From Candidatus Uhrbacteria bacterium (GTDB lineage: Bacteria; Patescibacteriota; Patescibacteriia; UBA9934; GWF2-40-263), in the NCBI GenBank assembly GCA_026395055.1, contig JAPLZK010000003.1, positions 99,855 through 163,854 of the forward strand: DNA of 64,000 nucleotides, in the 5' to 3' direction. The translations under genes were made by a program, and so were the position numbers. The stretch's first letter is position 1. Every line of letters starts with the position of its first letter. Below, piece after piece: positions 41,398-59,183 of this stretch. The notes beneath the pieces were generated by a model that did not search any database, was not told the DNA's origin, and was given only the letters and a program-made list of their open reading frames with translations.

Positions 41398-41408
41398 GCA
41401 CATCTCTT

Positions 41409-41518: not shown

Positions 41519-43300
41519 TTATTGTTTGTCTGTCCTGTATGCAACTTTGTATTCACCTCTATTCAGGATGGATCCGTGGTTCACACGCATGGGTGGGCCC
41601 GGATCATCCTCTCCTGCGGGTGGAATGACGCCATTCATTCCTGTCGGATCCCAAACGGTTGGATCAACGAATGGCAGTTCTTCATCGACGATGAGATCGA
41701 CGGTCGTCGCTTCTGCTTCGATGAACTCTTCGAGGTCATCGTCGCCCAAAATGATTTCTTCGTCGGCTGTATGCGGAACCGCTGTAGGTTTTGGCATTGG
41801 GACAAATGCATCGCTTGCGCGAAACGCCGGAGAACTTGATTCGCGATGACTCACGGGAAGTGAGGAGATCGGAATCTGTTTTGGAACGGGGGTGAGCTCT
41901 GGAATCAGGATGCTGACTTGAGAGATTTCTGGAATGGGTGGCGGTGTTACTCGTCCATACGAATTGATGAGCCATGAACGCAAGTGCATGAGCAGCGGAC
42001 TTTTTGGATCAAAGGGCATGTCGAGGACACGACTGATCCAAAGAGACGCAGCGTCTTCTGGTTGATTCATGCGCAGTGCGGCAACACGAATGTCTCTTCC
42101 GCCGAGCATGGCTTCTGCTGTTGGCTTATTTGGCGCAATCGTGAGCATGCGAATCATTTGAACAGAGGCTGCGGAGATTTGCAGTTTGATCTGTTTGATC
42201 GCGTCGAGCATCAGATCTTCAAGGATGGCATGCATGGTCTGCTGCGGATCACTCGGAAAGATCAGTTTCATTTCGATACCCGCAAGATACAACGGGTTTC
42301 GATGATCGAACGCTCGATTGAGATAGCCTCGCGCCGTTTGATCGATCGTTTTCCAATCAACCTTGAGCGGCGAGGTGTTGAGAACGGCGTATGGGTTGAT
42401 TGCGTCATGTACATCAAGAACGGCAAGACGCTGGTCTATTTTGACTTTGCCCTCTGGACCAAGCCAAAACACTTCAAGTGGACCTTCATTCAGTTTCACG
42501 CGGAAGATGTGTTTTGAAACGAATCGTTTTTCTCCATCCACGTCATCCGGTTCCGGAATTTGTGATTTGGAAGAGAGAAACAGCTTTTGTCCAAAGCGTG
42601 TTCCAATCAAGAGGCGTTTGCGAGATCCTCGTTCACGCTTGAACAATGGATCAAACGTTGGAATGAATTCAACAACGCGAACGCCGGGGCGCATCAAATT
42701 GTTGCGGATCACTTCAATGAGTGGCCAAAGCTCGTCTTTGTTTTTCGTAACGGCATTGCGACGTTTTGCAACGTCGTTCCAAACGTGAATTGTGCTTGGA
42801 TCCGCAAGTCCGAGCGGGAACGCTTTGAATGGCCCGGTCTTTGTGTTCGATTTGAAGACAAGACACTGGATGGAACCACCGCTTGTGTATTTCCCATTTT
42901 CGATCGCAATCAAATATTCGGGTCCGACATAGATGAGCGGAACGATTTCTTGTTCCGCGTCATAGCCGGGAAGGGTCGCTTTCGCGAATACGTGAACGTC
43001 CCCATTCGGTTGTTCACGACCTTCGAAGATGAGATTGGCAATATGTGCTCGACCATTCAATTCTCGCACAAGGCGTGCGCGCATGTCTGATCGTGCAGCT
43101 TCACGATTCGGATTTGGATCCACGAGTGCGGCGCGATTGATCGCGTCTGCGATCAATCGATTCGCTCCCGGAACACTGTCTGGGATCGCGGGAAGGTAAG
43201 CGCTTTTTCGGCCAGACAATTCTGGACTGATTTCCTGCACGTGCGGGATCGAAAGCCCGAGTTCGAGCAGGGTGACAGCGCTCAGCTGCGTCTCATCCAT
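41519..43300 (-). CDS. large conserved hypothetical protein P2 (paralog of P1) with long Pro/acidic C-terminal tail
   Basis: 593 aa; ~25% identity to P1 over ~450 aa; convergent orientation. Confidence 0.55.
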   Translation of the reverse strand: MDETQLSAVTLLELGLSIPHVQEISPELSGRKSAYLPAIPDSVPGANRLIADAINRAALVDPNPNREAARSDMRARLVRELNGRAHIANLIFEGREQPNGDVHVFAKATLPGYDAEQEIVPLIYVGPEYLIAIENGKYTSGGSIQCLVFKSNTKTGPFKAFPLGLADPSTIHVWNDVAKRRNAVTKNKDELWPLIEVIRNNLMRPGVRVVEFIPTFDPLFKRERGSRKRLLIGTRFGQKLFLSSKSQIPEPDDVDGEKRFVSKHIFRVKLNEGPLEVFWLGPEGKVKIDQRLAVLDVHDAINPYAVLNTSPLKVDWKTIDQTARGYLNRAFDHRNPLYLAGIEMKLIFPSDPQQTMHAILEDLMLDAIKQIKLQISAASVQMIRMLTIAPNKPTAEAMLGGRDIRVAALRMNQPEDAASLWISRVLDMPFDPKSPLLMHLRSWLINSYGRVTPPPIPEISQVSILIPELTPVPKQIPISSLPVSHRESSSPAFRASDAFVPMPKPTAVPHTADEEIILGDDDLEEFIEAEATTVDLIVDEELPFVDPTVWDPTGMNGVIPPAGEDDPGPPMRVNHGSILNRGEYKVAYRTDKQ

Positions 43301-43681: not shown

Positions 43682-44521
43682 ATGCAATTTTCCATTCCTC
43701 CTGCTGCCGCTGAAACAATTTTCCATCTCGGGGGGTTTTCTGTTACAAATACCATTATCAACAGCTGGATTGCTGTTGTTTTTTTTGTCATCATCGTCAT
43801 GTTGCTTAACCGCAAGCAAACACGTGTTCCAAAAGGATTGCGCAACATTGCAGAAGGGTTAGTTGAGTTCATGCTCGCAGAAATTCAAAAAGTTACAGGA
43901 GATGCAAAGCGCTCACGACAGTTTTTGCCGATCGTGGGAACAATCTTCTTGTTTATTTTATTTTCAAACTGGATCGGACTTTTCCCTGGAGTTGGTTCCA
44001 TCGGAGTGTGGGAAATAAAAGAGGGGACAAAGGAATTTATTCCCTTGTTACGTTCTGCCGCATCTGATTTGAACTTAACGCTCGCGATTGCCGCTTTTGC
44101 TGTTTTTACGTCGCACTTCATTGGTTTGCGGTCCGTTGGGCTTGTGAATCACTTCAGCAAATTCTTTAACATTCGTGGAATTTGGCGTTCGCTTAAGAAA
44201 GGACCGATCGCCATCATTGTTGCGGTGATTGAATTTGGTGTTGGACTCATTGAAATCGTAAGTGAGCTCGCAAAAGTTGTTTCACTTTCTCTTCGTTTAT
44301 TCGGAAATGTCTTTGCGGGAGAAGTGCTCATGACCGTGATGCTCGGATTGTTTTCCTATTTCCTTCCAATTCCATTCATCTTTCTTGAAATTCTTGTTGG
44401 TGTTGTTCAAGCAACCGTCTTTGCCATGCTTACGCTTGCGTATCTCACGGTTGCAACAACTTCGCATGAAGAGCATGAAGAAGAACATCATGAACCAGAT
44501 CACGTCCGTGCCCACGCATAG
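43682..44521 (+). CDS. atpB: F0F1 ATP synthase subunit a
   Basis: RLFGNVFAGE motif with conserved Arg, 5-6 TM. Confidence 0.9.
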   Translation: MQFSIPPAAAETIFHLGGFSVTNTIINSWIAVVFFVIIVMLLNRKQTRVPKGLRNIAEGLVEFMLAEIQKVTGDAKRSRQFLPIVGTIFLFILFSNWIGLFPGVGSIGVWEIKEGTKEFIPLLRSAASDLNLTLAIAAFAVFTSHFIGLRSVGLVNHFSKFFNIRGIWRSLKKGPIAIIVAVIEFGVGLIEIVSELAKVVSLSLRLFGNVFAGEVLMTVMLGLFSYFLPIPFIFLEILVGVVQATVFAMLTLAYLTVATTSHEEHEEEHHEPDHVRAHA

Positions 44522-44613
44522 GTTCGCGCAGGGCGTTGCTCCTCGAGATTCTCGACGATCAACGTTCATCGCGAAACGATGGAATCAATTTATTTATTCT
44601 TAAGGAAACTTTT

Positions 44614-44832
44614 ATGGACGCAGCAAGCATCATTGCCCTTGCAAAAGGACTTACGATTGCGATCGGCGGATTTGGTCCAGCGATCGGAATTGGTTTAATT
44701 GGATTTAAAGCGATGGAAGCGATTGGTCGCAATCCAGAAGCTGCAGGAAAATTGTTCGTGCCAATGCTTCTTGGAATGGCCTTCGCAGAAGCCGTTGCTA
44801 TTTACGCCCTCGTTGTTTCGTTTACCCTTTAA
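44614..44832 (+). CDS. atpE: F0F1 ATP synthase subunit c
   Basis: ORF 44536 trimmed to MDAAS; hairpin GRNPEA loop, carboxylate E in helix 2 (AEAVAIY); no Na+ Q/ES/T signature. Confidence 0.9.
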   Translation: MDAASIIALAKGLTIAIGGFGPAIGIGLIGFKAMEAIGRNPEAAGKLFVPMLLGMAFAEAVAIYALVVSFTL

Positions 44833-44889
44833 ACGACGCATCACGACAGGTTGTCGAGATTCGACGACCTTTGTGAGTTGTTGTTTCGT

Positions 44890-44986
44890 GAGGGGTAAGG
44901 GGCTAGAGGCAAGGGACTAGATTGAAATAATTTTCGTTCTTGTACCACCCTTTGTCTCGTCCCTCGCCCCTTGCCCCTAACCCCTT
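44890..44986. repeat. long imperfect G-rich/C-rich inverted repeat in atpE-atpF intergenic spacer
   Basis: left arm GAGGGGTAAGGGGCTAGAGGCAAGGGAC, right arm GTCCCTCGCCCCTTGCCCCTAACCCCTT (23/28 complementary), ~40-nt loop. Confidence 0.45.
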
Positions 44987-44992
44987 TTCTAT

Positions 44993-45499
44993 ATGTCAGA
45001 ACCTACAGGTGGCATCGCCACACTCGGAATCAATGTGAATATTTTTATCGCGCAGCTCGTCAACTTTCTTGTTGTCTTGCTTGTGCTTTGGAAATTTGCG
45101 TACAAGCCACTCGTCAAAATTTTGGATGATCGATCACAAAAAATTGAAGACAGCCTGAAGCAATCTGATGCGGTTGAGCTTCGTGTGAAACAACTTGAGG
45201 TTGAGCAAAAACAAATTATTGCAACGGCAAAAGGTGAAGCCATGCAAATTCTCGAAACAGCAAAAGCAGATGCAGATGTTCGTAAGCAAGAATTGCTTGC
45301 AGCGGCAAAGAAAGAGGTTGAGCGCGTCGTTGCTCAAGGCAAAGAACAACTTCAGGCAGAGAAAGCACAAATGCTTCATGAAGCAAAAGCAGAACTCGTG
45401 AATATGGCGGTTAGCGCTACAAAGAAAATTCTTGAATCAGAGGTTGATGAAAAAGCATCACATAAGATTGCGACAGACGTTATTCAAAAAATGTCCTAG
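44993..45499 (+). CDS. atpF: F0F1 ATP synthase subunit b
   Basis: N-terminal TM then long coiled-coil (KQLEVEQKQ...). Confidence 0.8.
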   Translation: MSEPTGGIATLGINVNIFIAQLVNFLVVLLVLWKFAYKPLVKILDDRSQKIEDSLKQSDAVELRVKQLEVEQKQIIATAKGEAMQILETAKADADVRKQELLAAAKKEVERVVAQGKEQLQAEKAQMLHEAKAELVNMAVSATKKILESEVDEKASHKIATDVIQKMS

Positions 45500-45503
45500 G
45501 CGT

Positions 45504-45887
45504 ATGAACGTTTCACCTAAACAATTAGCACGCCTGTTCGTTGAATCTGTCGAAGACGCTTCAGAGAAGCATCTCGAAGAAGCCGCGACAGAATTGATTA
45601 CGTGGCTTCACGCTCGTGGTGAGTTGAAGAAGCTGAAGGACGTCATTCGCTCCATTGATCAAATTTGGAAAGAAAAACATGGAATGGCAACGCTTACGAT
45701 TGAAACTGCGCATCCACTTACAAAAACAATGAAAGACGCACTCACGAGTCTTGCGGCTGGCGCAGAGGTTCGAGAGGTTGTTGATCCGACATTGATTGGT
45801 GGCGCAAGACTTCGCATCGACGAGCGCATTATTGACGGATCCTTGAAAGGCGCCCTTGAACAACTTACACAAAAACTTTCACGATAA
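45504..45887 (+). CDS. atpH: F0F1 ATP synthase subunit delta (short, 127 aa)
   Basis: ORF 45432 trimmed to MNVSPKQ; OSCP-like C-terminal GGARLRIDERIIDGSLKG. Confidence 0.65.
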   Translation: MNVSPKQLARLFVESVEDASEKHLEEAATELITWLHARGELKKLKDVIRSIDQIWKEKHGMATLTIETAHPLTKTMKDALTSLAAGAEVREVVDPTLIGGARLRIDERIIDGSLKGALEQLTQKLSR

Positions 45888-45896
45888 TTTTACAAC

Positions 45897-45940
45897 GCGA
45901 GAAAAGATTGCTTCGTCGATGACTCCTCGCAATGACAAAA
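45897..45940. repeat. intergenic repeat AAAGATTGCTTCGTCG..ACTCCTCGCAATGACAA before atpA
   Basis: near-identical copy before atpG (47497..47541). Confidence 0.4.
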
Positions 45941-45944
45941 CTTT

Positions 45945-47447
45945 ATGAATACTAAAACAGATATCGTCGACGCGCTTAAAAAGTCGCTCGAAACATTTCA
46001 AACAAGCACGTCTGAAGAACAAGTAGGAACTGTTCTCTCTGTTTCTGATGGAACCGCTCGCATGAGTGGACTTTCGAATGCAAAATCATCCGAGATGCTT
46101 GAATTTCCTGGCGGAGTCTTTGGCGTGGTGTTGAACCTCGAAGAAGATACGGTCGGAGCTGTTATTCTTGGAGACACAACAAAAATTAAAGAAGGGGACA
46201 CGGTTCGTGCCCTTGGACGTATTCTTTCTGTTCCTGTATCAGATGAGATTATTGGACGCGTCGTAGATCCACTTGGAAATCCCATTGATGGCAAAGGAGC
46301 ATTTCGTGCTTCTACATTTTTTCCGATTGAAAAAGTTGCTCCAGGTGTTATGACACGTAAATCCGTTGGAGTTCCACTTCAAACGGGAATTAAAGCGATT
46401 GATGCCCTTATTCCAATCGGTCGTGGTCAGCGTGAGCTCATCATCGGAGATCGCCAAGTGGGAAAGACGGCAATTGCCATCGACACAATCATCAACCAAA
46501 AAGGACAGGGGGTGAAATGTATTTATGTTGCGATTGGTCAAAAGGAATCTAAGATCGCAAAGATTGTTGCAAAGCTCGAAGAAGCAGGTGCTATGGAATA
46601 CACAACCGTTGTTGTGGCTGGTGCATCTGATCCAGCAGCGCTTTCTTACATCGCTCCGTACACTGGTTGTACGATTGGAGAATACTTCATGGCAAAGGGC
46701 GAAGATGCGCTCGTTGTGTATGACGATTTGTCGAAACACGCTTGGGCTTATCGTGAAATTTCTCTTCTTCTTCGCCGCCCACCAGGACGTGAAGCGTATC
46801 CAGGAGATGTTTTTTATCTTCACTCTCGTTTGCTTGAACGCGCAGCGCGTTTGAATGAAGAGAATGGTGGAGGATCACTTACAGCTTTGCCGATCATCGA
46901 AACACAAGCGGGTGATGTGTCTGCTTACATTCCAACAAACGTTATTTCTATTACAGACGGACAGATTTATCTTGAAAGCGATTTATTCTATCGTGGAATT
47001 CGCCCAGCGCTCAACGTTGGTCTCTCTGTTTCTCGTGTGGGATCCGCTGCGCAAACAAAGGCTATGAAAAAAGTGGCGGGAAAGTTGCGTCTCGACCTTG
47101 CGCAATTCCGTGAGCTCGAAGCGTTCGCACAATTTGCGACGGACCTCGATGCAGGAACGCGTGCACAAATTGAACTTGGACGCCGCACAACAGAATTGCT
47201 CAAGCAATTGCAGTACCAACCACTTCCATTCGAGGAACAAGTTGCGGTGATCTTTTCGGTAACAAACGGGTTCTTGAATGCGGTCGCCATCGAAAAAGTT
47301 GTGCAATGGGAAACAGATTTTCGTTCCTATATGAACTCGGTCGGCGCAGATGTTTTGAAGTCATTGCGTGACGAGAAAGCCCTTACAGATGAAATTGTTG
47401 TATCGCTTAAAGAAGCCATTACAGGATTTAATGAACAGTGGAAATAA
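45945..47447 (+). CDS. atpA: F0F1 ATP synthase subunit alpha
   Basis: GDRQVGKT Walker A, full-length alpha. Confidence 0.95.
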
Positions 47448-47452
47448 GTTTT

Positions 47453-47541
47453 GTGTCATTGCGAGCGAAGCGCGGCAATCTTTCTAGGGAGTTTATCTCA
47501 AGGAAAAAGATTGCTTCGTCGTCGAACTCCTCGTAATGACA
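47453..47541. repeat. intergenic hairpin/repeat before atpG (TTGTCATTGCGAG...GCAATCTTT // AAAGATTGCTTCGTCGTCGAACTCCTCGTAATGACAA)
   Basis: outer and inner inverted arms; right half repeats the element before atpA. Confidence 0.4.
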
Positions 47542-47551
47542 ATAAAAATAT

Positions 47552-49856
<2,305 letters not shown>

Positions 49857-49945
49857 ATAATAAATCCGAATATCGAATAACGAAATTCGAAAACAGAGTA
49901 AGGTTTTCGACATTCGGATTTTGTCTTCATTTCGAATTTTATCTT
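49857..49945. repeat. 7-bp periodic CGAAnnn repeat element between atpD and atpC
   Basis: TCCGAAT ATCGAAT AACGAAA TTCGAAA ... TTTTCGACATTCGGATTT ... ATTTCGAATTTTAT; homologous copy at 62144..62234. Confidence 0.45.
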
Positions 49946-50371
49946 ATGTATTTGAATTTAAAGATCGTCACCCCAGAACGCATTGTCTATGAAGACGATG
50001 TTGATTCTGTTTCTCTCATGACAGAAATGGGTGAAGTCACGATTTTGCCAAATCACGTTCCCTTGGTATCAAATCTTCGCGCGGGTGAAGTTCGATTGAA
50101 AAAGAATGGGGAAGAGTCACATCTTGTTGCGTCAACTGGATTTCTCGAGGTGCGTCCCGGAAATCAGGTCGTGATCCTCGCAGACACAGCAGAACGTTCA
50201 GAAGAACTTGAACTCGAGAAGATTGAGGAAGCAAAGGAACGTGCTCGTAAATTCCTTACGGAAACCAAGCATAAAGACGACGTGGCGTTTGCGGATGCGG
50301 CAGTTCACCTAGAAAGAGAGCTCGCCCGATATCACGTTGCGCTTAAACGAAAGAAATCACATAAAAACTAG
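49946..50371 (+). CDS. atpC: F0F1 ATP synthase subunit epsilon
   Basis: N-terminal beta-sandwich pattern LKIVTPERIVYEDDV, C-terminal helices. Confidence 0.85.
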   Translation: MYLNLKIVTPERIVYEDDVDSVSLMTEMGEVTILPNHVPLVSNLRAGEVRLKKNGEESHLVASTGFLEVRPGNQVVILADTAERSEELELEKIEEAKERARKFLTETKHKDDVAFADAAVHLERELARYHVALKRKKSHKN

Positions 50372-50501
50372 AAAAAGATATCCACCGCTGAACGCGGTGG
50401 ATTTTTATTTAGCCTTGACGGAAAGGATGACTGGAGGTATCATCGTGTTCTCCAAGTGAGTATTTGGAGACGTTCTTTGATCGTAAACCCTTACAAGGAG
50501 T

Positions 50502-51143
50502 TTGCCCATGCCGAATCGTGCAGAAGATGTGCGTCTTATTCGCCTCTTGCGTGAAGCCAATGTTCTCGTCAATGTTGACGGACACAAACTGCATGCGCCA
50601 AATGGTGTCATTCCCGTCGTCTGTCCTGATTGCGATCAAGTCGATGACATCGATAACCATATCCGCAAGTTGCTCGATGAGTCCGGTGGGAGAATTCGTC
50701 CGCACATGCTGAAGCAGCACGGTGGAGGCATGCTCATTTCTGAAGCGTGTCCGCTCGATCGCGAATTCAACATCGACAGGTACCTGTTGAAGCACATCGG
50801 TATCGCGCGCAACTTGAAGGATATCAATACGATCATTCTGTACGTGCACGCGCCGTGTGGTGCTGCACAACTTGAAGGACTGAACGTTGTCGAGATTCTG
50901 TATCACGTTGTGGAAGCAAAGAAGCGCGTCAAGGCCATGTGGCCCACGGATCGCATCAGTTGCTACATCCACGTGGACTACGCAAACGAAAAGAAGCGCA
51001 CGTACTTTCTGAGTCGTGAAGCATTCGAACGTTGGTTTCACGACAACAACGGCGAACAATATGTGAAGCACATGAACAAAGGGAACGGATCCAGTCCTGA
51101 TCACAAGACTGAGTTTGAACCTGCTGCCCCTGCGTCTTCGTAG
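50502..51143 (+). CDS. hypothetical protein P56 (paralog of 58555..59151)
   Basis: shared blocks RLI.LL.EA.VL, L..LHGG, KKRTYFLSREAFERWFHDN vs NRTYTLQINTPEFHAWYNDY; alternative start 50508. Confidence 0.5.
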   Translation: MPMPNRAEDVRLIRLLREANVLVNVDGHKLHAPNGVIPVVCPDCDQVDDIDNHIRKLLDESGGRIRPHMLKQHGGGMLISEACPLDREFNIDRYLLKHIGIARNLKDINTIILYVHAPCGAAQLEGLNVVEILYHVVEAKKRVKAMWPTDRISCYIHVDYANEKKRTYFLSREAFERWFHDNNGEQYVKHMNKGNGSSPDHKTEFEPAAPASS

Positions 51144-51152
51144 ATCCTCTAA

Positions 51153-51175
51153 CCGGACTTACCTCCGGTTTTTTA
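51153..51175 (+). terminator. intrinsic terminator after P56
   Basis: CCGGA-CTTACC-TCCGG followed by TTTTTTATTTTG. Confidence 0.45.
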
Positions 51176-51316
51176 TTTTGCTTCACAGCAAAATAACCAC
51201 CCATAGCTCGCACCGAGCAACGGATGGTCCATCTTGTGAACGCATGTATCTGTGCAAAAAGAACCTTGACGCTCTTTCATGCCAGGAGTAAATTATCCGA
51301 GATCAATTAATATCAT

Positions 51317-51856
51317 ATGAGCTTTCCAAAATTACTGAAGCGACTTTTTCTTGGACCACGTGTTACTGAAAAACAGGAATCTTTTTTAAAAACAGATAAA
51401 GAATTTGAAGCTGTCGGCGCGGAATTAAAATCCATCGTGCAATCTTTATATGGAGGACGATCCCTTCGTATTCGTGCGGTTGATGGAGGTTCAACAAATG
51501 CAGAAGAGAACGAGCTCACCGCTCTTAGCAATGCCTACTACGATATTGATCGTTTTGGGTTGAGTTTCGTTGCGTCTCCACGTCATGCAGACATGGTTTG
51601 GGTAACAGGTTGTGTGACGCGCAACCTTGAGCGTGCGGTGAAAACAACCTATGAAGCCGCACCAGAGCCATGCATTGTTGTCGCCATTGGTGACGGAGCT
51701 TGCACGGGAGGAATCTGGAAAGATTCTTATGCGGTAGTTGGAGCTCTTGAAAATGTTATTCCGGTTCACATCAAGATTCCTGGAGATCCGCCAACGCCAA
51801 CGCAAATCTTGCGTGGAGTTTTAAACGCGCTCAAACAATCATCCTCAAAATCTTAA
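51317..51856 (+). CDS. NuoB/HycG-like small subunit lacking three of four N2 cluster cysteines
   Basis: aligns to NuoB SPRxAD...GxCAxxGG...PGCPP but CCxxE -> GGSTNAEE and PGCPP -> PGDPP; only GDGACTGG Cys retained. Confidence 0.75.
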   Translation: MSFPKLLKRLFLGPRVTEKQESFLKTDKEFEAVGAELKSIVQSLYGGRSLRIRAVDGGSTNAEENELTALSNAYYDIDRFGLSFVASPRHADMVWVTGCVTRNLERAVKTTYEAAPEPCIVVAIGDGACTGGIWKDSYAVVGALENVIPVHIKIPGDPPTPTQILRGVLNALKQSSSKS

Positions 51857-51857
51857 T

Positions 51858-53840
51858 ATGAATCTTTCGTTTTTTGTTGTGCTGTCTTTGTCTGGAGTAT
51901 TCCTTTCTGCACTTATTTCATTTATCAGCGCAAAAGGGCAGGGGCACCGCGCAGTCGTGACGCTCCTCGCGTTGTCTACGGGACTTGGAGCCTTTTCAAG
52001 TGCGGCTTTTTTGTTGAGTGGTCAATCTCAACTCACAATCACTCAATCTGCGTGGCTTTTTGGAACACCATTCGTTTTATCTGTTCTCTCAGCACTATTC
52101 TTTTTTCTTTTAAACACAGTCGCTTGTCTCGCATCTGTTTACGCCATGAAGTATGTGGAACAGTATACGGAAGTCTATAACGTTCGCGTTCTCGATGGTC
52201 TCATGGCTATTTTCGTGCTCGGCATGCAAGGCGTCCTTCTTGCGGGCACACCGTTTGGATTTCTTGTGTTCTGGGAAATCATGTCGCTGTCATCCTTCTT
52301 TCTTGTCATGGCAGACAAAGAAGCGGCATCCGTTCGCGCAGCGCTCTTTTATCTCATCATGACACATCTTGGGGCAGGAGCGATCCTTGCTGGATTTATG
52401 ATCCTCTCGAACGGATCATTACTTGAATCATTCACGCGCCTCGCCATTCTCGCGCAACATCTTCCACCTTCAACACTGTTTGGTGTATTTCTTTTATTTC
52501 TCTTTGGCTTTGGCTCAAAGGCGGGACTTGTTCCGTTTCATGTCTGGCTTCCAGAAGCTCACCCACAAGCTCCATCGCACATTTCCGCACTCATGTCTGG
52601 AGTGATGTTAAAAATGGCGCTTTACGGTTTTTTGGTAATGACCTTCACTGTCCTTCCAATCGGAAGCTCGACCGCAGCCCTTATTGTGATTGCGCTTGGA
52701 CTTCTCTCGGCTGTTTACGGAGTGATTTACGCCGTGATTGAACGTGATGTGAAGCGTGTCCTTGCGTTTAGTAGTATTGAAAACATGGGAATTATTTTCA
52801 CCATGCTTGGTGTTGCCATGCTCACACAATCACAAGGAATGTCTGCATTCTCACACGTTGCCCTCGGCGCAGCGTTGTTGTTTGCCATTGCACACGCCTT
52901 TTTTAAGTCCGGATTGTTTATGGGGGCTGGAGTCATGGTTCATGCCGCACATTCGAGATCGCTCGAAGTGATGGGGGGATTATCAAAGCGTATGCCAGCA
53001 TTTTCTGGCGCAATGCTCATCCTTGCGCTTGCAGCCGCAGCACTTCCTCCATTCTCCGCATTTATGGCGGAATGGACGTTTGTGCAAAATCTCGTTGCAA
53101 ATTTGTCGACCATGTCGCCATTTATTCAGGGTGTTCTTGTCTTGGTTCTTGTGACCATGGCACTTGTTGGGGGTCTCGCGTTATTCGCCATGATCAAGTT
53201 GTTCGGGATCGGATTCCTTGCTGAGCCTCGTTCAGAACATGTTGCACACGCTAAAGCTCCTGGAAAACTCATCGCAATTCCAATTTATCTTCTTGCAGCC
53301 TGTTCCGTTCTGGTCGGACTTCTTGCACCAGCGATTTTAAGAACGATCGGATACGGGGATCTCACGGTTAATTACGACTTGCACACAAACATAGTTCTTG
53401 GAGGAGGATCCATGAATCCAGGTAAACTCCTCGCGCTTCTTGTCGCAACGTTCTTCCTCGTTCTTCTTTTACGTCGTGTGCTCTCGAACGTTAAGCACGA
53501 ACGTGAATATCACACGTGGGACTGCGGACAGCCAATCACTCCAGGAATGGAATTCACCGCAACAGCTTTCTCCGCATCGATTCGATTCTTCTTCCGTGTG
53601 ATTACACGCACAAAAAAGAATGTGATTACAACTCCGATCATTGCAAGTAATCCATGGATTGCAAGCCGAACATTCTCTCTCGAGCTTCGACAAATTTGGT
53701 ACGACGATCTTTACGTGCCAATCCAAAACGCGTGTCTCTGGACGTCTACCCAAGTTCGTAAACTCCAAAACGGTGTCATTCAATTCTATATCGCCCTTAT
53801 CTTCATTGCCCTCGTAGTAACGCTCGCGATCGCCCTATGA
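51858..53840 (+). CDS. NuoL/MrpA/HyfB-like antiporter-type membrane subunit
   Basis: 660 aa, ~16 TM, conserved proton-pumping-subunit core. Confidence 0.75.
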   Translation: MNLSFFVVLSLSGVFLSALISFISAKGQGHRAVVTLLALSTGLGAFSSAAFLLSGQSQLTITQSAWLFGTPFVLSVLSALFFFLLNTVACLASVYAMKYVEQYTEVYNVRVLDGLMAIFVLGMQGVLLAGTPFGFLVFWEIMSLSSFFLVMADKEAASVRAALFYLIMTHLGAGAILAGFMILSNGSLLESFTRLAILAQHLPPSTLFGVFLLFLFGFGSKAGLVPFHVWLPEAHPQAPSHISALMSGVMLKMALYGFLVMTFTVLPIGSSTAALIVIALGLLSAVYGVIYAVIERDVKRVLAFSSIENMGIIFTMLGVAMLTQSQGMSAFSHVALGAALLFAIAHAFFKSGLFMGAGVMVHAAHSRSLEVMGGLSKRMPAFSGAMLILALAAAALPPFSAFMAEWTFVQNLVANLSTMSPFIQGVLVLVLVTMALVGGLALFAMIKLFGIGFLAEPRSEHVAHAKAPGKLIAIPIYLLAACSVLVGLLAPAILRTIGYGDLTVNYDLHTNIVLGGGSMNPGKLLALLVATFFLVLLLRRVLSNVKHEREYHTWDCGQPITPGMEFTATAFSASIRFFFRVITRTKKNVITTPIIASNPWIASRTFSLELRQIWYDDLYVPIQNACLWTSTQVRKLQNGVIQFYIALIFIALVVTLAIAL

Positions 53841-54772
53841 ATTCCTTTCTCCTAACTCTCGTCCAATTCATCGCTGTCATTCTCGTCGCACCATTCGTGA
53901 CGGGGCTGGTTCGCATGTGCAAGGCGCGATTCCAAGGCCGACACGGTGCTTCACCATTTTTGCCGTACATCACGTATGCAACACTTCTCAAGAAACAAAT
54001 GGTTATTTCGAAAAGCACCTCTTGGGTTTTTCGTTTGGTTCCATTTGTTGTTCTTGCGACGACGTTGTTTCTTGTTTGCGTTTTACCACTTCTTGTTTTC
54101 GGCGGAGCCTTTGTATCACTCGGTCACTTCATGATTGTTGCCGGTGTTCTCGCACTCGGTGCGGCATTTCTTGTTATGGGTGGACTTGAAAGTGCAAGTG
54201 CATTCGGAGGAATGGGCGCATCTCGTGAAATGACGTTAGCGTCCCTCGTCGAGCCAGCCATGATCGCAACATTCGCAACATTTTCCATCGTCACCGGCGC
54301 ATTCACCGTCGACGCGATGTTTGCAAACGCGCATATTCTCACTTCACCCGCATTGATTCCAGCAATCGCTGCGCTTATCATGGTCGCGCTTGCGGAGAAT
54401 GCGCGTTATCCGGTCGACAACCCAGCAACACACCTTGAACTTACAATGGTTCACGAGGCGATGGTTCTTGAATACTCTGGACCTTATCTTGCGATGCTTG
54501 AATACGCATCCGCAGTGAAACTCACCATTTTTTCTTTGCTTGTTGCAAACATCTTGTTTCCCATGACTCTTGCGGTTGATGCAACTCTTGTTGCGATCTT
54601 GATTACGATTGCGTACATGATCGTGAAAGTCATCGTTGTTTCATTCTTGCTCGCGCTGCTTGAATCATTGATTGCCAAAATGCGTTTTTATAGAATGCAA
54701 GAATACATGACCATTGCGTTCTTCTTTGCGCTTGCTGGCCTTGTCTTTGCTCTCATCCACATCACCCTATGA
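53837..54772 (+). CDS. NuoH/HycD/HyfC-like membrane subunit
   Basis: GLVRMCKARFQGRHGASPFLPY and AENARYPVDNPATHLELTMVHEA correspond to NuoH conserved loops. Confidence 0.65.
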   Translation: MNSFLLTLVQFIAVILVAPFVTGLVRMCKARFQGRHGASPFLPYITYATLLKKQMVISKSTSWVFRLVPFVVLATTLFLVCVLPLLVFGGAFVSLGHFMIVAGVLALGAAFLVMGGLESASAFGGMGASREMTLASLVEPAMIATFATFSIVTGAFTVDAMFANAHILTSPALIPAIAALIMVALAENARYPVDNPATHLELTMVHEAMVLEYSGPYLAMLEYASAVKLTIFSLLVANILFPMTLAVDATLVAILITIAYMIVKVIVVSFLLALLESLIAKMRFYRMQEYMTIAFFFALAGLVFALIHITL

Positions 54773-55398
54773 TCTCACTTTCTCTTTGGAATAATATCTT
54801 CATGGGCGGAACGCTTTTGTTTGCGATCGTCATGATGGGAATGCCACGGCTCCCAGCGATGCTTCGCTTCTTCGCGTTGTCCTCACTTTGTCTCGCGGGA
54901 CTCATTGTCACGTCATCTCTCATGAAAGGGGATGAACAGCCGTACGCAATCGCGATCATCAATATTGTGTTCAAGGTAATCCTTGCTCCAAGCATTTTGT
55001 TTTTTGCTGCACGCAAGGTTCGCGCATCCATGGCGCTCAAGTTTTATTTGCGTCCAACCGCAACCTACTTCGCTGCGCTCCTCGTGTTGCTCATCTCTGT
55101 ATTCGTTTCGTTGCGCATGCCGGGCGTTCCATATCTTTCGATCGCCCTTGTTCTTCTTGGGCTCGTATTCATGATGGTTCGAAAAGATTTGTACTCACAA
55201 ATCATTGGATTCATGACCATGGAAAATGGAATTGCCGCTTACGGTGTACTCATGATTGGCGGTTTTCCCTTCATGATTGAAACAGGAATCTTGTTCGTTG
55301 TGATCACCGGAGCAATCTTGATGGCAATCTTAAGTCGTCATGTGCAAGAGCTCTACGCAACGGGCGACACGGAATCCTTAACCGAGCTCACCGAATAA
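54769..55398 (+). CDS. HyfE/NuoK-like small membrane subunit
   Basis: 209 aa, 6 TM, C-terminal MENGIAAYG...ETGI NuoK-like segment. Confidence 0.5.
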   Translation: MISLSLWNNIFMGGTLLFAIVMMGMPRLPAMLRFFALSSLCLAGLIVTSSLMKGDEQPYAIAIINIVFKVILAPSILFFAARKVRASMALKFYLRPTATYFAALLVLLISVFVSLRMPGVPYLSIALVLLGLVFMMVRKDLYSQIIGFMTMENGIAAYGVLMIGGFPFMIETGILFVVITGAILMAILSRHVQELYATGDTESLTELTE

Positions 55399-55399
55399 T

Positions 55400-56857
55400 A
55401 TGCCAACTATTTTCATCCTATTTCTTTTTGCAGCCGCAAGCGCATACATTGCTCGAACGGAAAAACAGATTCGTGTAAGCGCACTCGTGTTTGCGATTCT
55501 TGGTGGTGGTTCAAGTCTTTACCTCGCAGTCATGAGACTTCTTGTAAGTCCATACACACCCGTCTCAGGTTGGTTTCGTGCGGACATGTACACCTGGTTC
55601 ATGATTGCGCTTGTTTCATTTGTGTATATCACTGCAACGATTGCGAGCGTTCGCTATACAGGCGAGGAATCTCGCGAAGGATTGCTTACGATCGAGAAAC
55701 TCCGTGTCTACTTTTTCTCCATTCCACTCTTTATCCTTGCCATGCTTGTTTCTGTTCTCGCAAACCACCTTGGTTTGCTTTGGATTGGACTTGAAGGCAC
55801 AACTCTTACGACAACCTTGCTCGTTGCGCTGTATCGTAAGGATGCATCCATTGAGGCGGCTTGGAAGTTCATCATGCTCTGCTCCATTGGTATCGGACTT
55901 GGAATGATTGGAATGCTCATGTTTGTGCACGCCGGAGTTGTCGCTGGACTCAACGTGTTTGATGCGTTCTCATACTCAACGCTTCGAACGAGTGCACATC
56001 TTCTTGACCCAGCATCGATGAAGCTCGCTTTCGTCTTTCTTCTCGTTGGAATTGGAACCAAAGTTGGTTTTGTCCCAATGCACACATGGCTTCCGGATGC
56101 TCACAGTAAAACTCCCTCGCCAATTAGCGCACTTCTTTCAGGGGTACTCTTGAACGTTGCGTTCTTTGTCTTGCTACGTTGCAAAGTTCTCACCGATCTT
56201 TCGATCGGAAGTTCTGCATGGTCTGATCACCTTATGATCGGCTTTGGCGTGCTCTCCGTTGTTGTTGCCGCATTTTTCTTACTCCAACAACGCAACTACA
56301 AGCGCATGCTTGCGTATTCGAGTGTTGAACACATGGGACTCATGGGCTTTGCGTCTGGACTCGGTCCTGTTGGAATGCTGGCACTTACGATCCATGCTGT
56401 CTTTCACACCCTTACAAAATCCGCATTGTTCTTCACATCGGGTGAAATTTTGCTTTCTCAAAAAACAACAAAGATTGCCGGAATCAAAAATTTGATGAAG
56501 AAAACTCCGATCACGGCAACGTTGTTCCTCCTCGGCATTCTTGCGATCATCGCCGTCCCACCATCCGGACTCTTTACGAGTGAGTTCATGATTGTCGGTG
56601 CTGGACTCCAATCCGCTCGCGGGCTCACACTCGTCCTGCTTCTCGCTCTCACCATGATTGCGTTTAGTATGTTGAAGAGTACGACGTCCATGCTTTACAC
56701 AGCAGATGATGGAGTCGTCGAACATACACATAAAGAAAAATGGACGCTCACACACGCGGTCGTCATCGTTCAGTTGATTCTGATCGTTGTGCTCGGACTT
56801 TTCATCACCACCGCGCCAGTCCTCGACTTTTTCAAGTCAATTTCACAATCGATCTAA
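55400..56857 (+). CDS. NuoN/NuoM/HyfF-like antiporter-type membrane subunit
   Basis: 485 aa, ~14 TM, conserved core of complex I antiporter subunits. Confidence 0.7.
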   Translation: MPTIFILFLFAAASAYIARTEKQIRVSALVFAILGGGSSLYLAVMRLLVSPYTPVSGWFRADMYTWFMIALVSFVYITATIASVRYTGEESREGLLTIEKLRVYFFSIPLFILAMLVSVLANHLGLLWIGLEGTTLTTTLLVALYRKDASIEAAWKFIMLCSIGIGLGMIGMLMFVHAGVVAGLNVFDAFSYSTLRTSAHLLDPASMKLAFVFLLVGIGTKVGFVPMHTWLPDAHSKTPSPISALLSGVLLNVAFFVLLRCKVLTDLSIGSSAWSDHLMIGFGVLSVVVAAFFLLQQRNYKRMLAYSSVEHMGLMGFASGLGPVGMLALTIHAVFHTLTKSALFFTSGEILLSQKTTKIAGIKNLMKKTPITATLFLLGILAIIAVPPSGLFTSEFMIVGAGLQSARGLTLVLLLALTMIAFSMLKSTTSMLYTADDGVVEHTHKEKWTLTHAVVIVQLILIVVLGLFITTAPVLDFFKSISQSI

Positions 56858-56858
56858 T

Positions 56859-58415
56859 ATGAACGCACAAGAAATTCTTCACACTATCAAATTGTCCGGC
56901 CACACCCATGGCTCTCTTGTGACGCTTGAGTCTGTTTCACCGGAATGGTTCACCCCGTTGTGCAATCGATTGTCCGCTGAGTTCAAACTTCCGCTTTCTT
57001 TGTTGTATGCAACAGATGATCGCAAAGAGGGAAAGGGGTTCGGTATTCATGTGTTGTTTGCGCTTGATGCGTCACACGAGTGGCTGCTTGTTGAGACAAC
57101 ATTGTCCGAAGAGAACCCAAGTTATGAATCTCTGACAAAAACAATCATGGAAGCGCATTGGTATGAGCGTTATGCCATGGATATGTTTGGCATTAAGGCA
57201 GAAGGTCATCCAGATCCACGTCGTTTGGTTCATCATGAGAACGTTCCGGCAAACACACATCCACTTCGTAAAGATTTTGCGTGGAATACAAAGATGGAGC
57301 ATGCAAATGAACCTTATCCAATGCATCACATTGAAGGCGAAGGAATCTTTGAGATTCCGGTCGGTCCAATTCACGCAGGTGTGATTGAGCCCGGACATTT
57401 TCGCTTTAACGTTGCGGGTGAACGTATTATTACCCTCGAAGGAAAGTTGTTCTTCACACACAAGGGTGTTGAGAAACTCCTTGAAGGAAAGACAGTTGCA
57501 CAAGCACTTCCATTCATTGAACGTATCTCAGGCGACATGTCTGCGTCACACACACTTGCATTTGCTCAAGCGATCGAGCAGATCTCAAGCGTGACGGTTC
57601 CAAAGCGTGCGCAAGAACTGCGTGTACTGATTACAGAACTTGAACGCATTACAATGCATACATTCGACATTGGAAACATGGCGGGAAACGGAACCGGATT
57701 TACGGTTGAAGCAGCTCATGGATTCCGTGTGAAAGAAAAAATCATGCGATTGTCTGAACGTGTGTTCGGAAATCGTTTTTGGCGCGGATTCGTTGTGCCG
57801 GGCGGAGTCTCGAAGACGTTGTCACAAGAAGAACTTCTCGATATTGTAAAAACAACAAAGGAAGTTGTTCAAGAGATGGAAGATCTCTTTCAGCTTGGTC
57901 GACACTCAGATGGACTTCGCGAGCGTCTCGAGACAACAGGTGTCCTCGCAAAAGAAGTCGCCGTAGCATTTGGTGCGCTTGGACTTCCAGCTCGTGGATC
58001 TGGAGTGGATCGTGACGTTCGTCGTGATCATCCTTATGCAGCGTATGCCGAGATGCAACCGGAAGTATTCACCTTTGAGAAAGGCGATGTCTATGCACGT
58101 TGGAAACTGCGCGCACTTGAGATGGTCGAATCAATGAAGCTCATCGAAAAGATTTGTGCCTCAAAGAACGACGGCTCTGTGCGTGTCGACGTACACGTAA
58201 AAGACGGCATGGCGATCGGTGCGGTCGAATCATGGCGTGGTGAGCTATTGAACGTGGTCTACGTCAGGAATGGTGTGATTGCACGCTGCGTTCCACGTGA
58301 TCCATCCTTCTGCAACTGGGCGCTCTTTGGAGCGATTGGCCCTGGAAACATCATTCCGGACTTTCCCTTGTGTAACAAATCATTGAACTTAAGTTATTCC
58401 GGAACCGATTTGTAA
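56859..58415 (+). CDS. fused NuoC-NuoD / HycE-like large subunit lacking NiFe-ligand cysteines
   Basis: ORF 56787 trimmed to MNAQEIL; NuoC-like WYERYAMDMFGI..GHPD; GPIHAGVIEPGHFRF; L1 motif RxCGxCxxxH replaced by RISGDMSASH; C-terminal DPCxxC replaced by DPSFCN. Confidence 0.8.
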   Translation: MNAQEILHTIKLSGHTHGSLVTLESVSPEWFTPLCNRLSAEFKLPLSLLYATDDRKEGKGFGIHVLFALDASHEWLLVETTLSEENPSYESLTKTIMEAHWYERYAMDMFGIKAEGHPDPRRLVHHENVPANTHPLRKDFAWNTKMEHANEPYPMHHIEGEGIFEIPVGPIHAGVIEPGHFRFNVAGERIITLEGKLFFTHKGVEKLLEGKTVAQALPFIERISGDMSASHTLAFAQAIEQISSVTVPKRAQELRVLITELERITMHTFDIGNMAGNGTGFTVEAAHGFRVKEKIMRLSERVFGNRFWRGFVVPGGVSKTLSQEELLDIVKTTKEVVQEMEDLFQLGRHSDGLRERLETTGVLAKEVAVAFGALGLPARGSGVDRDVRRDHPYAAYAEMQPEVFTFEKGDVYARWKLRALEMVESMKLIEKICASKNDGSVRVDVHVKDGMAIGAVESWRGELLNVVYVRNGVIARCVPRDPSFCNWALFGAIGPGNIIPDFPLCNKSLNLSYSGTDL

Positions 58416-58428
58416 AGCTCCAAATCAA

Positions 58429-58471
58429 AAATCCCAAATTCCAAATGATTGGAGCTTGGGATTTTCTTTTT
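58429..58471 (+). terminator. hairpin cluster/terminator after large subunit gene
   Basis: AAATCCCA..TGGGATTT stem followed by TCTTTTTGG; overlapping AGCTCCAA..TTGGAGCT stem. Confidence 0.35.
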
Positions 58472-58554
58472 GGTGCTTTACGCTTGACGCTCGCGTCATT
58501 CTCGAGTAGTCTCTCCACATCGTCACCTCAACTTCGACGATACAAGGATAGCTC

Positions 58555-59151
58555 ATGCCCGTTTCTCCTCTCTCTTTTGGTGATCAACGTTTGATCGAGT
58601 TGCTGTACGAAGCGCGTGTCTTGTACGAAAAGAAATTGGAATTCGATCTTTCGAAAACACTCGTTGTCACAGATCTTGCAAATCCAAATCCGGAAATTTC
58701 CGTAAACACGCAAGTCGAGCCCGCTCAGATCCTGCGGGTTTTGCACGGTGGCTGTGCCTTGCACACCGTGACATCCAACGTGAATCACGAAGAACGGCGT
58801 GAACGCATCATTGAGAGAATGAAGACGTTGTTGTTCGGCTCATTCATTCAGACGATTGCTCTCGTTGCGGCTGCACCTTCCCTTGATCCGCCGCTTTCGC
58901 TCGTCGACACCATCGACTATCTGCGTTCGGCAGAAGAGTACGTCTGTCTGATGTTCGGAAAGAAATTGCAGGTGTACAACTTCATCTGCGTGAAATTTCC
59001 AGACAATCGAACGTACACGTTGCAGATCAACACTCCCGAATTTCACGCGTGGTACAACGACTACGAACGCGATGTGCTTGGACGTGATGACCGCGCTGTA
59101 GAAGACGACAGCGATGGCATCGACGGCCGTAGTGGTATGACGATTCCGTAG
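58555..59151 (+). CDS. hypothetical protein P58 (paralog of P56)
   Basis: 198 aa; ~25% identity with P56 across full length; acidic C-terminus. Confidence 0.5.
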   Translation: MPVSPLSFGDQRLIELLYEARVLYEKKLEFDLSKTLVVTDLANPNPEISVNTQVEPAQILRVLHGGCALHTVTSNVNHEERRERIIERMKTLLFGSFIQTIALVAAAPSLDPPLSLVDTIDYLRSAEEYVCLMFGKKLQVYNFICVKFPDNRTYTLQINTPEFHAWYNDYERDVLGRDDRAVEDDSDGIDGRSGMTIP

Positions 59152-59156
59152 ACCCT

Positions 59157-59183
59157 GACACTCATTTGAGTGTCTTTTTTGTT
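59157..59183 (+). terminator. intrinsic terminator after P58
   Basis: GACACTCA-TT-TGAGTGTC followed by TTTTTTG. Confidence 0.5.

Follow-up and report, generated by a model that had tools for sequence, protein, structure and literature searches.

A predicted beta-carbonic-anhydrase-like protein and its degenerate paralogue on either side of an Ehr module in Candidatus Uhrbacteria

We have analysed a window of 64,000 nucleotides (the whole stretch of DNA studied; GenBank assembly GCA_026395055.1, contig JAPLZK010000003.1, positions 99,855 to 163,854 of the forward strand), whose source is a metagenome-assembled genome of Candidatus Uhrbacteria in Patescibacteria or the Candidate Phyla Radiation (CPR). 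Our main subjects are P56 and P58, two genes for proteins of about 200 amino acids (aa) which bracket a six-gene complex-I-like module of the type called Ehr, and which are identical to the NCBI hypothetical proteins NTX72_03455 and NTX72_03490, respectively. Structure prediction gives P56 the fold of a beta-carbonic anhydrase (beta-CA) with a conserved putative Cys-x-Asp...His-x-x-Cys zinc site, and P58 is a remote paralogue in which this site has been lost. Genes of carbonic anhydrase (CA) type are located beside Ehr modules with the gene order of the window (NuoB-like gene first) far more often than by chance, and Ehr and CA-type proteins are likely to be functionally linked. The explanation that we favour, with moderate confidence, is that P56, probably paired with the dead P58, supplies CO2/bicarbonate/proton chemistry tied to Ehr and to the ATP synthase.

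Literature searches on a linkage of CA with Ehr or with ATP synthase in CPR, and on PF20393, found no relevant prior description, and the P56 family, the split live/dead pair and the CA-Ehr-ATP synthase neighbourhood in CPR were not described in the literature searched. What is new here is the divergent, predicted beta-CA subfamily and the split pseudo-dimer; the presence of Ehr in CPR and CA heads on complex-I-type subunits were already known.

Fold and putative zinc site of P56

The two proteins and the motifs of the putative metal site are as follows.

50508..51143, + strand: P56, soluble protein of 211 aa (ATG start, homologues, AlphaFold2 (AF2) model)
50622..50639, + strand: motif C41-P-D43-C-D45-Q46 of P56, aligned with CxDxR of Pro_CA_2-type proteins
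50847..50867, + strand: motif H116-A-P-C119-G-A-A of P56, aligned with HYGCGGA of beta-CA 1ddz
58555..59151, + strand: P58, 198 aa (profile homology to P56)

Residues of P56 are numbered on the 213-aa open reading frame (ORF) counted from 50502, and conservation was judged across 80-105 diverse members of the P56 family. The AF2 model of P56 has a predicted local distance difference test score (pLDDT) of 92.4 and a predicted template modelling score (pTM) of 0.88. In this model C41 lies just past the strand 36-40, and H116 and C119 lie at the C-terminal end of the strand 110-117, as does the HxxC motif of beta-CAs. When the model was compared with PDB by Foldseek, nearly all of the top 50 matches were beta-CAs, with probabilities up to 1.0. 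C41, D43, G74, K106, H116, P118, C119 and G120 are invariant in the family, and D45, Q46, D49, R66, H68, H157, D159 and Y168 are nearly invariant; the family signature reads C-[SAP]-D-[GC]-D-Q ... H-A-P-C-G. The predicted metal ligand positions C41, H116 and C119 are in register with those of Pro_CA_2 and 1ddz. An hhalign comparison of the P56 family with Pro_CA_2-type neighbour proteins gave 95.3% and E 2.4e-8 over 116 columns and matched CxD to CxD and HxxCG to HxxCG, and a PDB profile search with 80 sequences had beta-CA 1ddz as its best match, non-significant and aligned on HxxCG; the same search with a 13-sequence alignment gave no match. Taken together, the model and the profiles show P56 with a predicted beta-CA fold and a conserved putative zinc site.

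A word-indexed search found 13 close relatives of P56, and an exhaustive profile search enlarged the family to 659 cluster representatives at 50% identity, 521 of which were at E <= 1e-10. Every named member comes from Patescibacteria/CPR and is without a Pfam domain, and neither Pfam nor NCBIfam has a model of the family. Among the weak Pfam matches of 105 members, Pro_CA_2 was the commonest (7 members, best E 2.1e-4), and Pro_CA was also found (3 members, best 0.049). The gathering cut-off of Pro_CA (PF00484) or Pro_CA_2 (PF20393) was reached by none of the 105, and P56 itself had no match to either. DUF5864 (E 0.03) and an azoreductase model (E 0.089), which appeared in direct Pfam/NCBIfam scans of P56 and P58, were discarded as noise. 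An earlier reading made from the sequence alone (hereafter, the sequence-only reading) had seen no recognisable domain in either protein; this holds for the direct scans, but structure prediction and profiles place P56, and tentatively P58, in the beta-CA superfamily. No transmembrane-like segment was found in P56 (maximum hydropathy 1.03).

P56 and P58 as remote paralogues

The sequence-only reading had proposed that P56 and P58 are paralogues on the two sides of a six-gene complex-I-like module. Both ORFs were indeed found there (50502..51143 and 58555..59151), and the paralogy, marginal in pairwise alignment, was borne out by profile-profile alignment. BLASTP of P56 against P58 gave no significant alignment (E = 15), a null result that would be misleading if taken alone as a refutation of paralogy, given the profile result. 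Smith-Waterman alignment scored 45 against 29.8 +/- 4.6 for shuffled sequences (z = 3.3; 16 of 2000 shuffles reached the score), and it was collinear and nearly full length, joining residues 6-179 of P56 with residues 9-169 of P58. Comparison of the P56 family with the P58 family by hhalign gave 96.7% and E 3e-10 with 13 P56 sequences, and 98.0% and E 1.8e-13 over 175 columns with 80 sequences. A hidden Markov model (HMM) of the P56 family matched P58 at E 1.3e-5; its matches to the P58 orthologue in L005 (the loci compared here are numbered with L) and to an intermediate, P58-like protein of L016 had E 4e-8 and 4.7e-11, respectively. The register given by MAFFT agrees with that of hhalign, and the three blocks of residues quoted in the sequence-only reading are mutually aligned in the profile alignments. 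P56 and P58 are thus true, though remote, paralogues.

P58 as a degenerate copy

The putative ligand positions are all replaced in P58 (C41 by T39, D43 by L41, H116 by A106 and C119 by S109), and the replacements are constant across four P58 sequences. This gives substance to the earlier remark that the cysteines of the two proteins are not mutually conserved, in that the metal ligands are kept in P56 and lost in P58. P58 has three database relatives, and more divergent P58-like genes are present in L012, L015 and L016. The AF2 model of P58 (pLDDT 88.1) was built with the P56-family alignment and so depends on P56; with this dependent model, the top four Foldseek matches were beta-CAs at E about 6e-3 or weaker, and CsoSCA 2fgy was also listed. 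P58 has no hydrophobic segment, and its maximum hydropathy of 1.76 falls within a predicted core strand.

The ratio of nonsynonymous (dN) to synonymous (dS) substitution rates is 0.20-0.29 for P58 versus 0.04-0.08 for neighbouring genes, and these ratios are rough, with dS near saturation. A decaying pseudogene was considered and ruled out: five lineages or more have an undamaged ORF, with dN/dS of 0.2-0.3. P58 is under purifying selection and is probably a pseudoenzyme, and it is a young, narrow and lineage-restricted offshoot of the P56 family.

The Ehr module

The module between P56 and P58 was assigned by Pfam and NCBIfam and consists of six genes.

51317..58415, + strand: whole Ehr module
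51317-51856, + strand: NuoB-like
51858-53840, + strand: HyfB-like
53837-54772, + strand: NuoH-like
54769-55398, + strand: HyfE-like
55400-56857, + strand: HyfF-like
56859-58415, + strand: NuoCD/HycE-like, real start ATG 56859

The motifs of the NuoB-like protein (DGGSTNAEE, GDGACTGG and PGDPP) are missing the cofactor cysteines: of the four Cys positions of the canonical motif, a single one is retained. In the large subunit the sequence is RISGDMSASH, and a CxxC is absent from the C-terminus. By these features the module is assigned to Ehr, a group-4-hydrogenase/complex-I-like set without the cysteine ligands of [NiFe] and [4Fe-4S]; it holds two antiporter-like subunits. The Ehr of CPR has been reported as a monophyletic clade without metal-binding cysteines (Jaffe et al. 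2020, PMC7304191), and the module in the window has the same cysteine-less features. In the text of PMC7304191, carbonic anhydrase and ATP synthase each have 0 occurrences, and a linkage with CA and ATP synthase (atp) genes is undescribed there. The function of Ehr has been described as unknown (bioRxiv 10.1101/765248; PMC7304191).

Ehr is located directly 3' of atpC in at least seven loci (L038, L041, L042, L043, L050, L063 and L073), and the gap between atpC and the NuoB-like gene is 17-230 bp in six loci; Ehr follows atpC, with a gap, also in L037, L046 and L067. The F1Fo ATP synthase operon is the most frequent neighbour of CPR-type Ehr modules. A gene for a GGDEF diguanylate cyclase (L067:8919-9749) lies between atpC and Ehr in L067, in the position that P56 has in the window.

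Carbonic-anhydrase-type genes beside CPR-type Ehr

We retrieved 80 metagenome loci with the Ehr NuoB-like protein, and 42 of these have the CPR-like NuoB-first order. Beta-CA-like ORFs within 2 kb of NuoB-first modules numbered 10 in 97.7 kb, against 0 in 121.9 kb farther off, and none was found around 27 NuoB-last modules. Both flanks can be seen in 15 NuoB-first loci, of which 8 have a CA-type neighbour; among those with a NuoB-like protein that shares 63% identity or more with that of the window, it is 6 of 7. The Ehr-adjacent CA-type genes belong to four families with two unrelated folds (P56 family, Pro_CA_2, CsoSCA-like and gamma-CA), and were found in the following loci.

L034 (window-like): P56 upstream and P58 downstream of Ehr
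L046: P56-family gene upstream of Ehr
L024 and L068: P56-family gene, convergent, after NuoCD
L037 (upstream) and L042 (downstream): CsoSCA-like protein of about 350 aa with CMDGR motif; CsoSCA_cat 38.3 bits (cut-off 21.5), TIGR02701
L045: partial copy of the L037/L042 CsoSCA-like family at the contig edge
L043:17308-18261: Pro_CA_2 protein of 318 aa, ligands lost in the N-terminal copy and intact in the C-terminal copy (CMDYR...HHAQCG)
L041:17653-18255: Cam/CcmM-type gamma-CA; PDB 3kwc (CcmM) E 9e-37, 1thj (Cam) E 4e-31
L052, L060 and L065: small proteins with CxDxR...HxxC, weak HMM matches

The order atp-Ehr-[slot]-ParA-ParB is common to L041 and L043, with ParA 81% identical; the slot contains the gamma-CA in L041 and the beta-type double domain in L043, and one class of CA has thus been replaced in place by another. 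In each of L041-L043 the CA gene is immediately 3' of Ehr and some 7 kb away from atpC, and in L052 the gene with CxDxR...HxxC comes after Ehr, the 10 kb upstream being free of atp genes.

Distribution of the P56 family

The genome sample for the family was retrieved with a 33-sequence alignment, by the search pattern Y[AVT]HAPCGAA, and is biased towards that motif. The F-ATPase operon is the commonest neighbour of the family: its genes are near the P56-family gene in 9 of 19 species-representative genome loci, usually with the P56-like gene right after atpC. Co-occurrence with Ehr, the check suggested along with the sequence-only reading, turned out to be rare in both directions. Ehr genes were present within 10 kb in 1 of the 19 loci (L024) and near none of four more loci on long contigs, and a P56-family gene was found upstream of NuoB-first Ehr in 2 of the 32 loci with enough upstream sequence and downstream in 2 of 17.

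The arrangement of the window is kept in the related contigs L005-L008, L012 and L034. In L016, which has no Ehr, the order is atpC - X253 - P56-like - P58-like - UvrD, in which the P56-like gene directly adjoins the P58-like one; identity of L016 to the window is 90-96% for the atp genes and 90% for UvrD, and the arrangement of L015 is similar. In a neighbour-joining tree, the Ehr-linked and Ehr-less P56 proteins of Uhrbacteria form sister clades, and all P58-like proteins form one clade. Since the two genes are adjacent in the Ehr-less L016, either Ehr came to interrupt an already existing pair, or the pair persists when Ehr is deleted. The Ehr cassette lies between P56 and P58 in one clade only, and the bracketing thus reflects a module that is located within, or was removed from, a prior tandem pair.

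P56 and P58 are 56% and 48% identical, respectively, to their counterparts in L012, against 74-92% for the Ehr subunits and 98% for AtpD. Against L002, L009, L012 and L016, the identity of P56 is 43-56%, compared with 91-98% for AtpD and 86-92% for the NuoB-like protein. In the comparison with L012, P56 has a dN of 0.38 and the NuoB-like gene one of 0.04. Rapid divergence or paralogue replacement could account for this speed.

Genes of the P56 family often stand in tandem with a second beta-CA-type gene, either a Pro_CA_2 gene above the cut-off, as adjoins the P56-family gene in L019, L025 and L032, or a second P56-family copy. These tandem partners indicate that paired beta-CA-like genes are a general habit of CPR, and not peculiar to the window. 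In Ehr-less Uhrbacteria (L015-L017) a gene of another family, X253 (about 255-280 aa, motifs LCCIDEG and SH[AVE]GCGAA, no Pfam match), is placed between atpC and the P56-like gene. Its homology to the P56 family was not established, as hhalign gave 49% over 43 columns, local around HxxCGAA; X253 may be another beta-CA-like offshoot. The coordinates are as follows.

L019:9350-9895; L025:10631-11227 (- strand); L032:957-1466; L001/L018:9104-9790: tandem second beta-CA-type genes
L015:9088-9891; L016:9115-9876; L017:9031-9870; L031:10706-11659: X253 genes

Some members of the family have unusual forms. The P56-like protein P0029 of L017 (L017:9935-10876; 298 aa, stop-to-stop frame of 314 codons) owes its length to an insertion of about 45 residues before the KRTYF motif, and it is not followed by a P58-like gene. 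The P56-family gene of L030 (9977-10303 and 10307-10591) is cut by a single in-frame stop codon, and could be a pseudogene, a sequencing error or a case of recoded stop. The SR1 locus L033 has a two-piece HMM match to the P56 family. Six loci (L016, L018, L021, L026, L028 and L032) are titled "uncultured Gammaproteobacteria bacterium" and yet have CPR gene content; the atp and uvrD genes of these third-party annotation (TPA) assemblies are up to 96% identical to those of the Uhrbacteria window, and the titles look like mislabels.

Proposed explanation and alternatives

In the explanation that we favour, the interconversion of CO2, HCO3- and H+ would be what is selected beside Ehr. In the lineage of the window P56 would be its supplier, most likely within an asymmetric dimer of P56 and P58 that has a single active site, and this dimer would be the split-gene counterpart of the dead-plus-live double domains of L043, DabA and CsoSCA. 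Both the Ehr translocator and the ATP synthase beside it would be served by this activity in their proton/ion economy. Beta-CAs occur as obligate dimers whose active sites lie close to the interface, and the best mutually conserved block of P56 and P58 is the N-terminal helix, which could act as a dimerisation arm as in beta-CAs. Zinc binding by P56, and CO2/HCO3- chemistry or a close variant of it, are uncertain.

Whether the CA would act nearby or be docked physically on Ehr, as a vectorial CA like those of DAB or NDH-1MS, is a further point, and docking is possible. The C-terminal tails kept only in the Ehr-linked clade (...NG.D.D...F.P...S in P56 and DGRSGMTIP in P58) are a weak hint of it. 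A bolder proposal, which we put forward as doubtful, is that the redox-dead, CPR-type Ehr is a CA-coupled ion translocator in which a CA head is docked on the complex-I-like membrane arm. The head would be the P56-P58 dimer here and a Pro_CA_2 double domain, a CsoSCA-like protein or a gamma-CA elsewhere, and CO2/HCO3- interconversion would be coupled to movement of H+ or Na+. In one direction, proton-motive force would drive bicarbonate trapping, as in DAB and NDH-1MS; in the reverse direction, dehydration of bicarbonate would drive ions out of the cell and thereby supply the neighbouring F-ATPase, in CPR cells that ferment, have no respiration and inhabit groundwater rich in bicarbonate. If this were true, Ehr would gain a function, and a third independent marriage of CA with complex-I-type machinery would be added.

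Several observations weigh against the tie between P56/P58 and Ehr or against CA activity, and must be set beside it. The Foldseek scores of P56 are modest (E of at least 7.5e-4, TM 0.36-0.48), and the P58 model, which relied on the P56-family alignment, is not independent evidence for the fold. P56 is without the Arg of the Asp-Arg dyad, which DabA2 (PMC13144422) and also canonical beta-CAs cannot do without, and Asp45/Gln46 are found instead in about 90% of members, so that CA activity is not assured. Neither P56 nor P58 has a hydrophobic finger like that which anchors DabA to DabB, and both have promoter and terminator signals of their own; stable docking on Ehr is therefore kept only as a possibility. 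The P56 family is seldom near Ehr, with the single locus L024 among 19, and the four additional loci on long contigs have neither Ehr nor atp within 5 kb. L002 keeps P56 and Ehr in an otherwise syntenic order without P58, and the two proteins evolve, at protein level, 3-9 times faster than the Ehr subunits, unlike stoichiometric subunits. As to the neighbourhood counts, no CA neighbour was detected in 7 of the 15 fully visible NuoB-first loci, the flanks used to build the CsoSCA-like HMM had been inspected beforehand, and the metagenome loci are neither phylogenetically independent nor taxonomically assigned. The atp operon is also a confounder, since Ehr and beta-CA-like genes each favour its neighbourhood.

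This last point is the core of an alternative in which there is no coupling at all: P56 and P58 would be soluble housekeeping beta-CA-like proteins, e.g., for bicarbonate supply, in a variable atp-uvrD island where Ehr arrived independently, and the adjacency of CA and Ehr elsewhere would be a by-product of their shared preference for atp in small compact genomes. Indeed, L015-L017, L019 and L022 have a P56-family gene adjoining atp and no Ehr, and L023, L025 and L033 have one in the vicinity of atp; no CA-type gene lies between atpC and Ehr in L038, L041-L043, L050, L063 and L073; and the content of the island varies between close relatives. However, when Ehr is present the CA-type gene abuts Ehr and not atp (L041, L042, L043), a single slot is filled by a gamma-CA or by a beta-type protein, depending on the locus, no CA-like match occurs in 122 kb of distant flanks, and L052 has its CxDxR...HxxC gene after Ehr without atp in the 10 kb upstream. 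We regard this alternative as unlikely. In its functional part, the idea of a coupling factor put forward in the sequence-only reading stays alive through the recurrent adjacency of Ehr modules of this type and CA-type genes, irrespective of CA family.

The dedicated part of that proposal has fared differently. As an alternative explanation, it would make P56 and P58 dedicated accessory, assembly or structural subunits of Ehr, duplicated for its two ends, and their immediate position at both ends of the module on the same strand, the retention of this arrangement in L005-L008, L012 and L034, and the tails conserved within the Ehr-linked clade only are in its favour. But the family is CPR-wide, is mostly unlinked to Ehr and is widespread without complex-I-like genes, the very finding that the sequence-only reading had named as telling against it, and most Ehr modules have no family gene. 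Moreover, P58 is missing in L002, the pair occurs without Ehr in L016 and L015, the promoter and terminator signals are separate, and these are the fastest-evolving genes of the locus. The existence of the pair without Ehr in L016, together with the distribution of the family, means that P56 and P58 are not core or dedicated Ehr subunits; the idea is largely refuted by this distribution, and we consider it very improbable.

It is also conceivable that P56 is not a CA and that the beta-CA scaffold has been put to a different use which depends on zinc or senses it, e.g., to hydrolyse some other small heterocumulene or to act as a Cys-Zn switch in regulation or redox sensing, with P58 as its regulator. 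The replacement of the dyad Arg by Asp45/Gln46 noted above, a conserved polar set that is atypical of beta-CAs (D49, R66, H68, K106, H157, D159 and Y168) and the lack of any member at the Pro_CA gathering score fit such a role. On the other side, the slot is held elsewhere by proteins with canonical CA signatures (Pro_CA_2 with CxDxR...HxxCG, CsoSCA-like with CMDGR and Cam/CcmM-type gamma-CA), which argues that CA-type chemistry is what is selected there, and we rate this alternative as quite unlikely.

The repeated occurrence of CA genes of unrelated families, and of atp, beside CPR-type Ehr offers a concrete hypothesis, namely the handling of CO2, bicarbonate and protons, for the membrane energetics of minimal respiration-less bacteria. 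A large CPR-specific family has been placed, by prediction, in the beta-CA superfamily with the unusual signature CxDxD-Q in place of CxDxR, and P56/P58 would be a natural split-gene case of a one-live-one-dead beta-CA pair.

Locus layout and transcription signals

The order of genes, all on the + strand, is the F1Fo ATP synthase operon, P56, the six-gene Ehr module, P58 and a UvrD/PcrA-type helicase. Features other than those given above are listed below.

43682..50371, + strand: complete F1Fo ATP synthase operon (Pfam matches, ORFs, synteny kept in related loci)
43682-44521, 44993-45499, to 45887, and 45945-47447, + strand: atp subunits a, b, delta and alpha, respectively (Pfam, ORFs)
47552-48466, to 49856, and 49946-50371, + strand: atp subunits gamma, beta and epsilon, respectively (Pfam, ORFs)
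50380..50402, + strand: strong intrinsic-terminator-like hairpin, 9-bp stem and T run, in the atpC/P56 gap, closing the atp operon
50415..50443, + strand: promoter-like site TTGACG-17-TATCAT, 10/12 matches, 5' of P56
51151..51170, + strand: terminator-like hairpin 3' of P56
51266..51294, + strand: promoter-like site TTGACG-17-TAAATT, 5' of the Ehr module
59157..59174, + strand: terminator-like hairpin 3' of P58
from 59213, + strand: UvrD/PcrA-type helicase gene, directly after P58

The start of P56 is most likely ATG 50508 and not TTG 50502, because AAGGAG is located at 50495-50500, 7 nt 5' of the ATG, and the database protein, like its homologues, has 211 aa from MPN. The sequence-only reading had given each of P56 and P58 its own terminator, and the scan found a hairpin after each (51151-51170 and 59157-59174). 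By consensus signals, P56, the Ehr module and P58 look like three separate transcription units. The -35 hexamer TTGACG is common to the promoter-like sites of P56 (50415-50420) and of the Ehr module (51266-51271), and a third TTGACG is found 5' of P58 at about 58484-58489, with a 17-nt spacer and a weak -10, TAGTCT; this repetition could reflect common regulation or chance. An Rfam scan of the window found no RNA family.

Genes for FHA-domain and VWA-domain proteins lie between P58 (or the end of Ehr) and uvrD in relatives (L005:10671-12481, L012:9733-11546 and L002:11757-13540, all on the - strand), and this pair is absent from the window. Immediately 5' of the atp operon, the G+C content has a local peak of 0.54 versus about 0.45 elsewhere. 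The ORFs 39868-41397 (+) and 41519-43300 (-) in this peak encode 509 and 592 aa without Pfam match, and a 459-aa ORF (40024-41403, -) overlaps the former on the opposite strand.

Comparison with known systems

Complex-I-family machines to which a CO2-hydration or CA-like module is attached are known in NDH-1MS and in mitochondrial complex I. Cyanobacterial NDH-1MS (CupA/CupS) is a machine of this kind, with a CO2-hydration module (PMC6981117). The PDB matches of the L041 gamma-CA include the gamma-CA subunits of plant and algal mitochondrial complex I. NDH-1MS and mitochondrial complex I are redox-active, in contrast to the Ehr of the window with no cofactor ligands, and CupA is not a beta-CA.

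The fold of canonical beta-CAs (PF00484 Pro_CA; Cab 1g5c, CafC 6jqd and E. coli Can) was recovered by Foldseek for P56 and, tentatively with the P56-dependent model, for P58. Like them, P56 has a Cys after strand 1, HxxCG after strand 3 and an Asp two residues past the first Cys; unlike them, it has no Arg partner, a sub-cut-off Pfam score and TM of 0.36-0.48, and P58 has none of the ligands. The nearest sequence family to the P56 family is Pro_CA_2 (PF20393, "putative carbonic anhydrase"), which adjoins Ehr in L043. Its proteins keep CxDxR, and P56-family members do not reach its gathering score; to our knowledge, Pro_CA_2 itself is uncharacterised.

CsoSCA is reported (Sawaya et al. 2006) to combine a catalytic domain with a degenerate copy that lost its zinc site. 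It belongs to the beta-CA superfamily, as P56 and P58 are predicted to do, and CsoSCA_cat-like genes stand beside Ehr in L037 and L042. Different from CsoSCA, P56 and P58 are separate genes with HxxC spacing in place of the longer His...Cys, and there is no carboxysome context.

In the DAB system, DabA2 has two beta-CA-like domains, one zinc and a contact with a complex-I-type antiporter-like subunit (PMC13144422; DAB1 preprint). Neither P56 nor P58 has a DabA-type Pfam match, and they are not of DAB type. DabA is a single chain of about 800 aa with a membrane-inserting helix-loop-helix and an intact Asp-Arg dyad, whereas P56 and P58 are two soluble proteins of about 200 aa without the Arg; the partner of DabA is a lone NuoL-like DabB, and here it would be a six-subunit Ehr. 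The likeness of the two systems is in the combination of a beta-CA-like cytoplasmic protein with a complex-I-type antiporter-like subunit, and the one zinc per two domains of DabA2 resembles the putative pair of a live P56 and a dead P58.

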